Below, piece by piece: positions 602 to 3,720 of a stretch of DNA of 6,166 nt (positions within the stretch are counted from its first letter, which is position 1; each line of letters begins with the position of its first letter). Source of the stretch: a virus (lineage: Duplodnaviria > Heunggongvirae > Uroviricota > Caudoviricetes); IMG/VR virus record IMGVR_UViG_2675903536_000005; one strand, 5' to 3'. Below the pieces are notes generated by a model, which saw nothing but the letters and a program-made list of their open reading frames with translations, did no database searches and was not told where the DNA came from. The translations under genes were made by a program, and so were the position numbers.

Positions 602-626
602 AAAAAAACCCGCTCGCGGCGGGTTT
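602..626 (-). terminator. Rho-independent terminator (minus-strand orientation) at the left boundary of the low-GC cargo
   Basis: GC-rich stem cccgc(609-613)/gcggg(619-623), 5-nt loop, extendable by 3 A-T pairs; on the minus strand it is followed by a run of 7 T (complement of A602-A608). On the plus strand only TTT follows, so it is mainly unidirectional. Confidence 0.55.
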
Positions 627-671
627 AAGCTGTGTGGCGAAGTAACCACTCTTAACACGATACAATAGTTT

Positions 672-700
672 TTGCGTACGCGTTAGTGGTTATGTAAACT
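672..700 (+). promoter_or_regulatory. Candidate sigma70 promoter for the cargo operon
   Basis: TTGCGT (672-677), 17-bp spacer, TG-n-TAAACT (693-700, extended -10-like), about 40 bp upstream of the ATG at 740. Sequence inspection only. Confidence 0.25.
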
Positions 701-739: not shown

Positions 740-1768
740 ATGGCTACACTGGACGCATTCAGTAGAGTAATAACTCATCATACTATTACGATCGATACAC
801 AATACCGTACACAGAAAATTGATGATAGCATCAGATCGAACTGTGTTTGCCCGGTACCAACAATGCGTGAACTTGCTTCTAAAATAGTACGTTGTAAAGC
901 AATGATGCACAGTTATGAAAAAGGAGACTTAGTTTTAACTTTACAAGATGTAATATTCTTATCAAACAGAGCCGATAAAAAACCCAGCCATCTTGGTCTT
1001 TTAATTAATGCTGTAGATAAAAATGGAAGCACTACTGTATTAAAAAACATTAATACAGATGTTCGCACCGAAATATCACCAAAACATGAGGAAGGTGAAG
1101 GTTACGAAGTTTCTTCTCATATGATTATTTCTCTAGACGGAAATATGCGAACGTATGACATGAGTTTTATGCCAATACCAGGAGTTTCCACAGCAAAAAT
1201 AAATGGTTTCCTGAATAAAGTTCTCTTTAACGTAGCCAAAGATAATGAAGATATCTTTTCATGTCACACTTTAACAAATGAAGTGTCAAGTTTAACAAAG
1301 AAAAAAATAAAAGTATTATACAAGCCAGTCTTTGATATATCTGGAAAGTTAGATGAAGATTTGTTCAATAAAATAAATAAAGAAGGACTTTCTGATGTCG
1401 TTTTGGTAAAGAATGAATACAGAACTATTAATGCGCCAGATGTTAACGCGGCTATTATTCCTAAAGAAAGTACTTTACGCTTAGTACCAAACCATGGCCC
1501 CAACAATGTCCTTGGATGGATAAAATCTGTCTCAAACTTCTTTAAAGAAGATAAAAATGGAGGTTATGACTTAATAAAAATAAAATTCAAAGAGCCAGAG
1601 ACAGGATTCACAAGACAAGTTGACCTTCAAACTTCAAATGTAAGGCTGGATGGGCTGGAAAAAACATTTATCAAAAAGAGTGTAATAAATGGTTTTTCTT
1701 CGCGCTTAAAGGATTCTTATGATAGTATTAACATGGAGTTTGTGAATAAGATTATCGAGGTCATGTGA
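740..1768 (+). CDS. Cargo gene 1: 342-aa soluble hypothetical protein, candidate sensor/partner of the membrane protein (possible distant RexA-like)
   Basis: Long ORF in a markedly AT-rich block. No transmembrane segment, no signal peptide, no Walker A, no convincing nucleotidyltransferase or nuclease motif seen. Weak SD at the ATG at 740. Tightly linked to gene 2 (stop 1766-1768, next ATG at 1776). Confidence 0.7.
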   Translation: MATLDAFSRVITHHTITIDTQYRTQKIDDSIRSNCVCPVPTMRELASKIVRCKAMMHSYEKGDLVLTLQDVIFLSNRADKKPSHLGLLINAVDKNGSTTVLKNINTDVRTEISPKHEEGEGYEVSSHMIISLDGNMRTYDMSFMPIPGVSTAKINGFLNKVLFNVAKDNEDIFSCHTLTNEVSSLTKKKIKVLYKPVFDISGKLDEDLFNKINKEGLSDVVLVKNEYRTINAPDVNAAIIPKESTLRLVPNHGPNNVLGWIKSVSNFFKEDKNGGYDLIKIKFKEPETGFTRQVDLQTSNVRLDGLEKTFIKKSVINGFSSRLKDSYDSINMEFVNKIIEVM

Positions 1769-1775
1769 GGCTAAT

Positions 1776-2351
1776 ATGATTAGTATATTTTCACATTTAT
1801 TTAGACCGTTTGGTTACCTTTTCATTAAGGGAATTAGTGGTAAGTGCGCATACGATTTTTATGCACCTGCCGGGCTTGCTGTGATTTCTTTTTTTTACTT
1901 TTATTTATTTAAAATACCTACATCAGACCTACTAAAAGATGGCGGCTTTATTAAGTCTATATCTGGATTTGTATCAAATCTGCCAGGTTTTTATATAGCA
2001 GCTCTTGCAGCAATAGCCACTTTCAACAGAGAACAAATTGACTACCCTCTGATAGGAACTAATGGCACTCCTTTTATTAAAATTACACGAACAAAAGAAA
2101 ATGGTAGAATTGTTGACACTCAAGAGAAACTTACCAGAAGATTATTTCTGTGCATGTTATTTTCATTTTTAACTGCCCTCAGCATATGCATAGTGATTTT
2201 CAACGCTTTTATCACACCACTAATAAACATACTGAATAATGATATAGCAAACTGGTGCTATATCATTATCTTTTTATTCCTTACATGGCAAATGCTTGTT
2301 TCAACATTTTTTGGACTATACTATCTTGGTGATAGGATTCACATTAATTAA
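1776..2351 (+). CDS. Cargo gene 2: 191-aa integral membrane protein with four predicted TM helices (RexB-like topology), candidate effector/channel
   Basis: SD GAGG at 1767-1770 overlapping the gene 1 stop, 5 nt before ATG 1776. Hydrophobic segments YAPAGLAVISFFYFYLF, FVSNLPGFYIAALAAIATF, LFLCMLFSFLTALSICIVIFNAFI and WCYIIIFLFLTWQMLVSTFFGLYYL, with a charged loop between TM2 and TM3. Local pattern (LFxxIP...DG...IAALAAIATF) resembles lambda RexB (IAILIAALTF) from memory. Confidence 0.75.
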   Translation: MISIFSHLFRPFGYLFIKGISGKCAYDFYAPAGLAVISFFYFYLFKIPTSDLLKDGGFIKSISGFVSNLPGFYIAALAAIATFNREQIDYPLIGTNGTPFIKITRTKENGRIVDTQEKLTRRLFLCMLFSFLTALSICIVIFNAFITPLINILNNDIANWCYIIIFLFLTWQMLVSTFFGLYYLGDRIHIN

Positions 2352-2706
2352 CTACCATAATGGGGTTTATAGTTATTATTACACCGCTGATAAACCCCAT
2401 GGCAGTCTGCAATTCCTTCCTAATTGTGCCATCTGAACATCTTCTCTTCTTGGCAATAGTGCGTAATGAGATACCAATAACAAAGTGAGCTATGATCAGC
2501 TCATATTCCTCTGGTTTATACTTTCGCAACCGAGCCACACAACCGTCTATCATGATGCCTTCATCATCATCACACTGGAGACATGACTTTTTACCGTGTG
2601 GTAAAAGTCCCTTGAAACCAGCCGCTATCGGCTGCCAGTCCACACCACTATTTTCTGCTGCAGCCCATGCTCCCCAGCGGTCCAATACTTCATACATATC
2701 ACGCAT
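2344..2706 (-). CDS. Q: Late-gene antitermination protein Q (QuuD/phage-82-type short Q family)
   Basis: Translation from ATG 2706 (SD GGAG 7 nt upstream): MRDMYEVLDRWGAWAAAENSGVDWQPIAAGFKGL...CLQCDDDEGIMIDGCVARLRKY...CSDGTIRKELQTAMGFISGV...MVVN. The pattern matches the DLP12 QuuD-type Q protein as recalled (RWGAWAA, IAAGFKGL, CxDDxG, GCxARL, CSDG). The track ORF starts 5 codons earlier at TTG. Confidence 0.85.
   Translation of the reverse strand: MRDMYEVLDRWGAWAAAENSGVDWQPIAAGFKGLLPHGKKSCLQCDDDEGIMIDGCVARLRKYKPEEYELIIAHFVIGISLRTIAKKRRCSDGTIRKELQTAMGFISGVIITINPIMVVN
2360..2400. repeat. Perfect 11-bp inverted repeat with 19-nt spacer at the Q/cargo junction
   Basis: ATGGGGTTTAT (2360-2370) and ATAAACCCCAT (2390-2400) are exact reverse complements; it lies within the last codons of Q, immediately next to the convergent 3' end of cargo gene 2. 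Confidence 0.9.
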
Positions 2707-2723
2707 CAACTTTCTCCACAAAA

Positions 2724-3713
2724 TCAGGACAGCACACCAATCGCCAGCGCGCGATCGATAAAACGAAATATCAGCTCCAGTTGGGAACCATACTTCTCTT
2801 CAAATGCCACGGTATCCGCATGCAGTTCGTCATGGTGTTTTCTGCACAAAGGCAACACAAAAAGGTCATGCGCTTTAGTACCCATTCCACCCTGACCATG
2901 GCCAATCAGGTGATGCGGATCGTCGGCTGGCTTACCACAACATGCACACGGCTGCGTCTTAACCCAGCGCGTGTACTTTTCATTAACCCAGCGACGACGT
3001 TTGGGGCGTAACATAAAAGACTCCGGCGACTCCGGATCCACTTTCAGCGCCAGCACCTTTTTCGCTTTATCCTGGATAATGCTGGTGGCAGGAACCGAAG
3101 GCACAAGGTCACTCTCCCGGGTGACAGACGGCAAAACAGGCTTCGGTAATCTCAGGGCCTTACGGGCTGCACTTTCCGGTAAGGCATCCGCCAGGTCATT
3201 ACGAACCAGCCACCAGCACAGTTCCGGCATTGTCACAACGTGACTGTCATCAAAACCAAGATCACGGCGCACAACAGACAACACCCAGCGGGCACAGTTA
3301 TCCGTTGCCATTGATTCCAGCCGTTCCGTGAACTGGTCACGGAGAAGATTGTCACAGTGCCAGCACAGACGGATTGCGCCCGGAGCGTGTCGCATTGTGG
3401 TCATGTTCTCGCTGTGCCAGTCGGAATGAGGCCACTGGCAGCCTTTTTCACGAAGTAACCAGCTTTCAAGACATTCCACGCCACCAGCACGACGGATCAC
3501 TGCCTCATTGCGGAACACGGCCCGAACGGCAAGATCATCCGCCAGCGGTTGTGATGCCGCCGGAACGGCACCACTGGCGAAAGATGAATAACGTTCCGGC
3601 TCAGGCTCCAGCAGGACACGCCCCTGCATAAACAAGGGCATCAGCTCTGAACCTGGTCTGAACAATACGATCCCCATACGCGGGGCAATTTCAGGGGTCA
3701 GTAGTGCTCTCAC
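2724..3713 (-). CDS. DUF968-like prophage protein with C-terminal HNH-like Cys/His zinc motif (YdfU-like)
   Basis: C-terminus CACCGKPADDPHHLIGHGQGGMGTKAHDLFVLPLCRKHHDELH shows CxxC...HH...PLCxxHH...H, typical of HNH-type/DUF968 proteins found next to Q in lambdoid prophages. Start ambiguous: GTG 3719 (track), GTG 3713 (preferred, SD GAGG 5 nt upstream) or ATG 3677. Confidence 0.7.
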   Translation of the reverse strand: MRALLTPEIAPRMGIVLFRPGSELMPLFMQGRVLLEPEPERYSSFASGAVPAASQPLADDLAVRAVFRNEAVIRRAGGVECLESWLLREKGCQWPHSDWHSENMTTMRHAPGAIRLCWHCDNLLRDQFTERLESMATDNCARWVLSVVRRDLGFDDSHVVTMPELCWWLVRNDLADALPESAARKALRLPKPVLPSVTRESDLVPSVPATSIIQDKAKKVLALKVDPESPESFMLRPKRRRWVNEKYTRWVKTQPCACCGKPADDPHHLIGHGQGGMGTKAHDLFVLPLCRKHHDELHADTVAFEEKYGSQLELIFRFIDRALAIGVLS

Positions 3714-3720
3714 GGTCACC

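Follow-up and report, generated by a model that had tools for sequence, protein, structure and literature searches.

Results

Two adjacent genes in a lambdoid prophage

The stretch of DNA analyzed here (the window, 6,166 nucleotides [nt] of the IMG/VR virus record IMGVR_UViG_2675903536_000005, Caudoviricetes) lies within a lambdoid prophage and matches the chromosome of Escherichia coli strain SMBL at 99.9% identity. Two neighboring genes on its plus strand are the subject of this study. Gene A (positions 740 to 1768, ATG start) encodes a soluble protein of 342 amino acids (aa), and gene B (1776 to 2351) encodes a 191-aa membrane protein. The genes run in the same direction, A before B, with 7 nt between them. 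A GAGG Shine-Dalgarno sequence for B (1767 to 1770, plus strand) overlaps the TGA stop codon of A (1766 to 1768) and lies 5 nt before the start of B, an arrangement that could allow translational coupling and keep the A:B ratio fixed. We consider it probable that A and B make up an anti-phage module of two genes, carried by a prophage, belonging to the PDC-M53 (RexABpp) family, and working like RexAB of phage lambda, and we propose for it a sensor-effector mechanism in which A, a PDC-M53A protein with a RexA/RdgC-like fold, would be the RexA-type sensor and B, a PDC-M53B protein, the RexB-type effector.

The pair belongs to PDC-M53, the family of RexABpp

PDC-M53 is listed as a candidate system in PADLOC-DB v2. 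Gene product A matched the PDC-M53A model PDLC04696 over almost its entire length (E = 7.8e-32, residues 8 to 340 of 342), along with three further M53A models, and B matched the PDC-M53B model PDLC04699 (E = 1.7e-54, residues 4 to 190 of 191). The RexA and RexB proteins of lambda matched only the PADLOC RexA and RexB models and not those of PDC-M53.

Previous experiments on a prophage of Pseudomonas putida bear directly on this family. In prophage P1 of strain KT2440/PaW85, defense against certain phages requires both PP_5643 and PP_5644 (RexABpp; Rosendahl et al., Sci Rep 2026, PMC12894663). RexApp self-associates and binds DNA nonspecifically, and RexBpp is a protein with four transmembrane (TM) segments. 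Overproduction of RexApp leads to growth arrest and to permeability to SYTOX and propidium iodide with no depolarization; it is harmless when RexBpp is missing, and suppressor mutations map to rexBpp. No interaction between RexApp and RexBpp was detected in a two-hybrid assay (PMC12894663). The published picture of RexABpp also comprises a clamp around DNA and a pentameric pore. In their BLAST searches, the same authors recovered hypothetical proteins from pseudomonads only; they put the total number of Rex-like systems at five and mentioned neither PADLOC nor PDC-M53 (PMC12894663).

To compare the two pairs, the ends of PP_5643 and PP_5644 were rebuilt from the published primers, and the locus was placed in IMG/VR (L051) through the genomic-context sequence of a deletion primer. 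PP_5644 is a 188-aa open reading frame (ORF) whose native start codon is GTG (the cloning primer has ATG). Six of the seven published RexBpp mutation positions match this ORF, compared with at most three of seven in each of five distant B homologs that were sampled. PP_5643 matched PDC-M53A at E = 8.4e-157 and reached 9e-57 with PDLC04696, the best model of window A, and PP_5644 matched PDC-M53B at E = 2.8e-72. Likewise, family profiles built from the relatives of A and B scored PP_5643 at 1e-79 and PP_5644 at 7e-59. Pairwise identity is 38% between window B and RexBpp (E = 2e-29) and 22% between window A and RexApp across 278 residues (E = 8e-4). Furthermore, the loss-of-function mutation Y181H of RexBpp falls on the invariant GLYYLG motif, where it corresponds to Y183 of window B. 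Taken together, these results identify RexABpp as a PDC-M53 system and place the window pair in the same family. The suggestion in the original prediction that A might represent an uncharacterized sensor family is outdated, since PDC-M53 is the family of RexABpp, which was characterized in 2026. The window pair is an enterobacterial addition to this known family and not a new family or mechanism.

Size and conservation of the A family

Gene A had been described as an orphan, a label that did not survive a search for relatives. A word-indexed search returned 34 clusters at 90% identity, all from Enterobacterales, and an exhaustive profile search returned 308 representatives at 50% identity with E ≤ 1e-3 (102 of them with E ≤ 1e-10), mostly of 315 to 335 aa and including one named distant member from Endozoicomonas. 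Among 5,426 complete E. coli genomes, 15 carry the pair; it is also present in the cultured Shigella phage SfII and in the prophages of several further genera of enterobacteria. In PHROGs, A and B both correspond to families of unknown function. Neither protein had a match in Pfam or NCBIfam scans, and a Pfam scan of 93 relatives of A and 14 relatives of B gave single, chance-level matches only. A search of PDB sequences with the A profile found nothing; between that search and the Pfam scans of A and its relatives, there was no match to any nuclease or other enzyme family. These results are consistent with the earlier view that A carries no recognizable enzymatic motif. That A has no TM segment also held true: the maximum 19-residue Kyte-Doolittle mean is 0.70, and there is no hydrophobic segment.

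Across 93 family members, the signature of A consists of H127 (100%), R9 (95%), L88, G121, D234, S125, D70, and D93. Position 144 is Glu in 90% of the family and Met in the clade of the window. Only in the enterobacterial clade are H13, H14, and C35 invariant and C37 nearly so. The two Rx4H strings that the original prediction noted as a minimal HEPN motif, while cautioning that they occur easily by chance, are present (R9-VITH-H14 and R247-LVPN-H252). When the sequence is shuffled at constant composition, ~3% of the shuffles contain two of them, making the count only weakly unusual. R9 and H14 are invariant in 28 close homologs. Among the 93 family members, position 14 is His in 8 and usually Tyr or Phe, and R247 and H252 are variable everywhere.

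The ORF of A was recovered exactly as first predicted, on the plus strand from 740 to 1768. In RefSeq, WP_001208501.1 is a shorter, 301-aa version that starts at M42 (window position 863). Residues 1 to 41 are strongly conserved in the 28 close homologs, at identities down to 45%, with M1, A6, R9, T12, H13, H14, D19, R23, C35, and P40 invariant. In addition, a GGA(T) element resembling a ribosome-binding site is found 8 to 11 nt 5' of the ATG at 740 in five of six aligned cassette-bearing loci, and the homolog in phage SfII is annotated at 340 aa. From these three lines of evidence it follows that the 342-aa reading is correct. The RefSeq gene is 41 codons too short, missing positions 740 to 862 and with them R9, the most conserved arginine of the family. 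Farther downstream, a homopolymer of seven adenines (1301 to 1307, plus strand, codons ~188 to 190) is reduced to six in two related loci, L038 (6541 to 6585) and L039 (2204 to 2248), which shifts the frame of A near residue 188. These loci differ from each other at a nearby single-nucleotide polymorphism, and their shortened tracts could reflect genuine inactivation, slippage, or a homopolymer sequencing error.

Gene B and its linkage to gene A

By hydropathy, B contains four hydrophobic segments (about residues 28 to 49, 64 to 82, 119 to 145, and 157 to 182), and the same analysis gave four in all 13 homologs, in line with the four-TM architecture of RexBpp. Three motifs are invariant: LPGFYIAALAAIATF (69 to 83), LTRR (119 to 122), and GLYYLG (180 to 185). 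Residue 28, the equivalent of W25 in RexBpp, is Trp in at least 90% of homologs and Phe in the window. A search of PDB sequences with the B profile produced only insignificant matches (e.g., Rip1, 9oox_L, E = 0.44).

The two genes are strictly linked. A homolog of B lies downstream of A in all 40 close loci, in which A is 46 to 100% identical to that of the window, and the gap between the genes is 10 to 64 nt in 38 of them, the exceptions being the frameshifted L038 and L039. The linkage extends to distant members (~20 to 25% identity), for which the next gene begins within −23 to +13 nt of A in six of six sampled cases. Five of these six partners are full-length proteins of 188 to 203 aa, each with four hydrophobic segments and homology to B (E = 1e-26 to 3e-37). 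The sixth is cut by the end of its contig. Altogether, none of the 46 loci examined had A without B. Of the two proteins, B is more strongly conserved, showing the higher identity in 13 of 15 comparisons; A diverges most in its N-terminal 80 residues.

One further locus (L002, JBJFHC010000248.1, 2,198 bp) was assigned to a metagenome-assembled genome of Erysipelotrichaceae. Its A and B are 100% identical to those of the window and its Q protein, the antitermination protein described below, is 99% identical, and it is almost certainly a mis-binned fragment of an Enterobacteriaceae prophage.

Fold of A and its relation to RexA and RdgC

Both structure models of A are beta-rich alpha/beta folds with 15 to 16 beta-strands (≥3 residues) and seven helices, and the first long beta-strand contains R9 and H14. 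RexA was among the top two structural matches, RdgC was an equally good match, and no HEPN protein was among the matches. From the models and the fold search, A has the two-domain RexA/RdgC fold.

No corresponding signal was found in the sequences. Neither A nor its 93 relatives matched PF15969 (RexA), and A had no match to the PADLOC RexA model. Comparison of the A family with a 24-sequence RexA profile by hhalign gave probabilities of 0.7 to 1.7% under all settings; with shallow and 121-sequence alignments and in local, global, and low-mact modes, the result was never significant. For B, there was no match to PF15968 or to the PADLOC RexB model, and the hhalign probability against RexB was 0.15%. 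A HHpred probability of 98.2% has been reported for PP_5643 against RexA (PMC12894663), and we did not reproduce this link by hhalign with a shallow RexA alignment, probably because our RexA alignment comprised close homologs only (≥41% identity, Neff ~3.3). The original hunch that A is RexA-like thus stands at the level of the fold and the system and falls at the level of sequence, where the pattern on which it leaned (RTxF.P ... S....FL) was not substantiated. What A shares with lambda Rex is its fold, its architecture, and its presumed logic; it is not a member of the lambda Rex family. We also rejected the reading of A as a stand-alone RdgC-like protein: A had no Pfam RdgC match, no Pfam match recurred among the 93 family members, and a B partner was always present.

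A cargo site next to gene Q

The cassette lies in a low-GC module (33.5% guanine plus cytosine, 697 to 2401, no strand assigned) that holds A, B, and the last ~15 to 19 codons of gene Q. Across the A/B segment, GC content is 32 to 35% within flanks of ~50%. The borders of the module are approximate (697 to 701 on the left and 2390 to 2401 on the right) and were drawn from base composition and from blastn junctions against phages in which the site is empty or holds other cargo. The module is swapped as a block between related lambdoid phages and carries its own last Q codons. The antiterminator gene Q itself (2344 to 2721, minus strand; PF06530, E = 8e-44) is convergent with the cassette, with an 8-nt overlap between its stop end and the 3' end of B, and a convergent Q directly follows B in 39 of 40 loci. 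Q is backbone context and stands outside the defense system. Its companions on the minus strand include genes for a Dam-type methyltransferase, a LexA-like protein, RusA, a KilA-N protein, and a DUF968/HNH protein. The last of these (331 aa, 2724 to 3719, minus strand), which lies upstream of Q, is called "antitermination protein Q" in LR595868.1 and KF030445.1 (L054:4577-5285; L055:3094-4083); it matches DUF968/HNHc_6 and no Q family, and the label is probably a propagated annotation error.

On the other side of the cassette, a conserved backbone block (606 to 697, minus strand) forms the left border of the site and contains a strong intrinsic minus-strand terminator at 606 to 626. About 75 nt of it (~621 to 697) are nearly invariant in seven aligned loci, one of them from a phage with unrelated cargo, and are shared with SfII and Stx2 phages; an 8-bp palindrome, GCGTACGC, is located at 674 to 681. 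The block is probably the leader of the Q-dependent late promoter, equivalent to pR'/qut/tR'. No Rfam family was detected anywhere in the window at E values up to 0.1. A candidate promoter for the cassette (672 to 700, plus strand) consists of TTGCGT (672 to 677), a spacer of 17 nt, and TAAACT (695 to 700). The match to the consensus is weak, and a consensus promoter scan called none upstream of A; the candidate comes from conservation across loci, with a TAnnnT hexamer at the same spacing in seven of seven aligned loci.

The content of the site varies among phages. In 1720a-02 and PhiR5_1, it is empty and Q abuts the conserved block. In SfII, it holds PDC-M53 (SfII_50/SfII_49), and in mEp460_4F5, a different gene of 308 aa with no PADLOC match. 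In the Stx2-converting phage Stx2a_1447 (AP012536.1 genes _24/_23; L053:2635-4198), it holds an unrelated pair that encodes a 343-aa soluble protein and a 179-aa protein with four hydrophobic segments. This pair had no PADLOC match and no relation to the A, B, RexA, or RexB profiles, and its one sub-threshold Pfam match was to LPG_synthase_TM (E = 0.0011). It is possibly an unrecognized analogous exclusion system.

Discussion

Comparison with known exclusion systems

Our results place an E. coli prophage cassette beside the RexABpp system of P. putida, from which it differs in several respects. The N-terminal ~80 residues of window A are divergent, with a clade-specific cluster of H13, H14, and C35 and the loss of Glu144. 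The position also differs: the RexABpp genes lie just downstream of a gene for a Cro/CI-type repressor, whereas the window cassette sits on the opposite strand, in the interval from Q to the late leader. Finally, the hosts and target phages are not the same.

The comparison with lambda is one of architecture. Like RexA and RexB (PF15969/PF15968; PDB 8TWQ), the cassette is composed of a gene for a soluble, DNA-binding-type protein followed by one for a small four-TM protein, and both would be expressed from the prophage of a temperate coliphage. Yet there is no detectable sequence homology between A and RexA or between B and RexB, and the lambda proteins are smaller (279 aa for RexA versus 342 for A; 144 aa for RexB versus 191 for B). 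In lambda, rexAB is located in the immunity region and is cotranscribed with cI. The window cassette is placed between Q and the late leader, as in 39 of 40 loci, and is several kilobases from genes for XRE/Cro-type repressors. Moreover, RexB of lambda is reported to depolarize the membrane, whereas the PDC-M53 homolog RexBpp permeabilizes it without depolarization.

Other systems are more remote. E. coli RdgC (PDB 2OWL), which has no sequence similarity to A, is a stand-alone host modulator of recombination with no membrane partner. The kinetochore proteins CHL4/CENP-N-IML3, which are also among the closest known systems, are eukaryotic and also lack sequence similarity to A. Among actinobacteriophages, Sbash gp30/31, CarolAnn gp44/43, and Butters gp30/31 are two-gene prophage exclusion systems that combine a RexA-like DNA-binding dimer with a membrane protein. 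They belong to other hosts and families and are mostly found beside the immunity repressor; in Butters, the effector logic is reversed.

Proposed mechanism

Judging by homology, A would be a cytoplasmic, probably dimeric protein that has a two-domain fold of the RexA/RdgC type and binds DNA nonspecifically. It may sense DNA or a DNA-protein intermediate that is specific to infection and, upon sensing it or when the A:B ratio rises, would activate B; stoichiometry has been reported to matter for Rex systems (PMC12894663). B, presumably an oligomeric effector in the inner membrane, would then compromise membrane integrity and arrest growth, such that the superinfecting phage could not complete its cycle and the infection would be aborted. 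The cassette, as a low-GC insertion between Q and the leader of the late operon, would be served in the lysogen by a promoter of its own, antisense to late transcription. The present analysis supplies both family memberships and the strict linkage of A and B, along with how A is folded, the topology of B, and where the cassette is inserted. DNA binding, the need for both genes, and the role of B as a membrane-damaging effector triggered by A are taken from the literature on the homolog. For the E. coli cassette, we infer its activity, its trigger, the contact between A and B, the promoter, and a regulatory effect of convergent transcription.

The location suggests a broader idea, which we regard as doubtful. 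The site where Q meets the late leader in this group of lambdoid phages could be a dedicated hotspot for interchangeable cassettes of a soluble sensor and a four-TM effector, with the Stx2a_1447 pair as an unrecognized Rex-type family. Read-through transcription that starts in the early operon and crosses Q would silence the antisense cassette upon induction, sparing the lytic growth of the prophage itself from a self-triggered abortion.

Alternative explanations

A is unlikely to be mainly a housekeeping DNA-binding protein of the prophage, of the RdgC/RexA type and devoted to recombination or to the decision between lysis and lysogeny, with defense secondary or absent in this clade. Such a role would fit the equally good structural match to RdgC and the position of the cassette next to the region of Q and late-promoter control, and lambda RexA is reported to bias the bistable switch independently of RexB (PMC11077077). 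Yet A was accompanied by B at every locus examined, and some members lie outside prophages; one in an Endozoicomonas chromosome, for instance, is flanked by housekeeping genes, a setting in which a phage switch would make no sense. Furthermore, sister phages are viable with the site empty or occupied by unrelated cargo, so the cassette is not a core phage function, and the homolog RexABpp is a demonstrated defense system.

A second alternative, which we judge quite unlikely, reverses the logic as in gp30/gp31 of Butters: A would be a toxic antiviral effector that B sequesters until infection. A Rex-like system of this kind has been described. The invariant His127, together with the conserved acidic residues D70, D93, E120, and D234, could form a catalytic or metal site in A, and the two-hybrid assay with RexABpp revealed no contact between the partners. 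The P. putida results argue the other way, since overexpressed A is harmless without B, the suppressors arise in B, and both genes are needed. It is also B that is the more conserved protein, with invariant intramembrane motifs, and A that matches no nuclease or enzyme family.

It is highly improbable that the pair is a lysis-timing module made up of a holin- or antiholin-like membrane protein and a regulator. This reading draws on the small size and multiple TM segments of B, on the ~300 to 1,000 bp that separate the cassette from the holin gene in SfII and in loci L003 and L004, and on a marginal holin Pfam match (E = 0.016) in 1 of 14 B homologs. However, the cassette is on the strand opposite the late operon and would therefore not be expressed by Q-dependent late transcription; every phage already encodes a separate holin and endolysin; and the holin match is single and at chance level in a family that also occurs in nonphage contexts. 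We reject the reading for these reasons. Finally, it is barely credible that A is an HEPN-type RNase toxin acting through Rx4H with B as its membrane anchor or partner, despite the two strings and the invariance of R9 and H14 in close homologs, because HEPN domains are all-alpha helical bundles with a conserved Rx4-6H catalytic motif, whereas the models of A are beta-rich and Rx4H is not kept across the family; on fold and motif alike, the HEPN reading is effectively refuted.

Implications

With the pair read as a PDC-M53 exclusion module, two "hypothetical proteins" become a named and testable defense module. The analysis connects the PADLOC candidate PDC-M53, the characterized RexABpp system, and at least 308 sequence clusters, a link not made in the literature that we searched. 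Its added value lies in this identification of PDC-M53 with RexABpp and in the cargo site beside Q in lambdoid and Shiga toxin (Stx) phages. Exclusion of the Rex type is a 70-year-old problem. It now gains a much larger comparative data set, along with an E. coli member that is open to standard coliphage collections and genetics.
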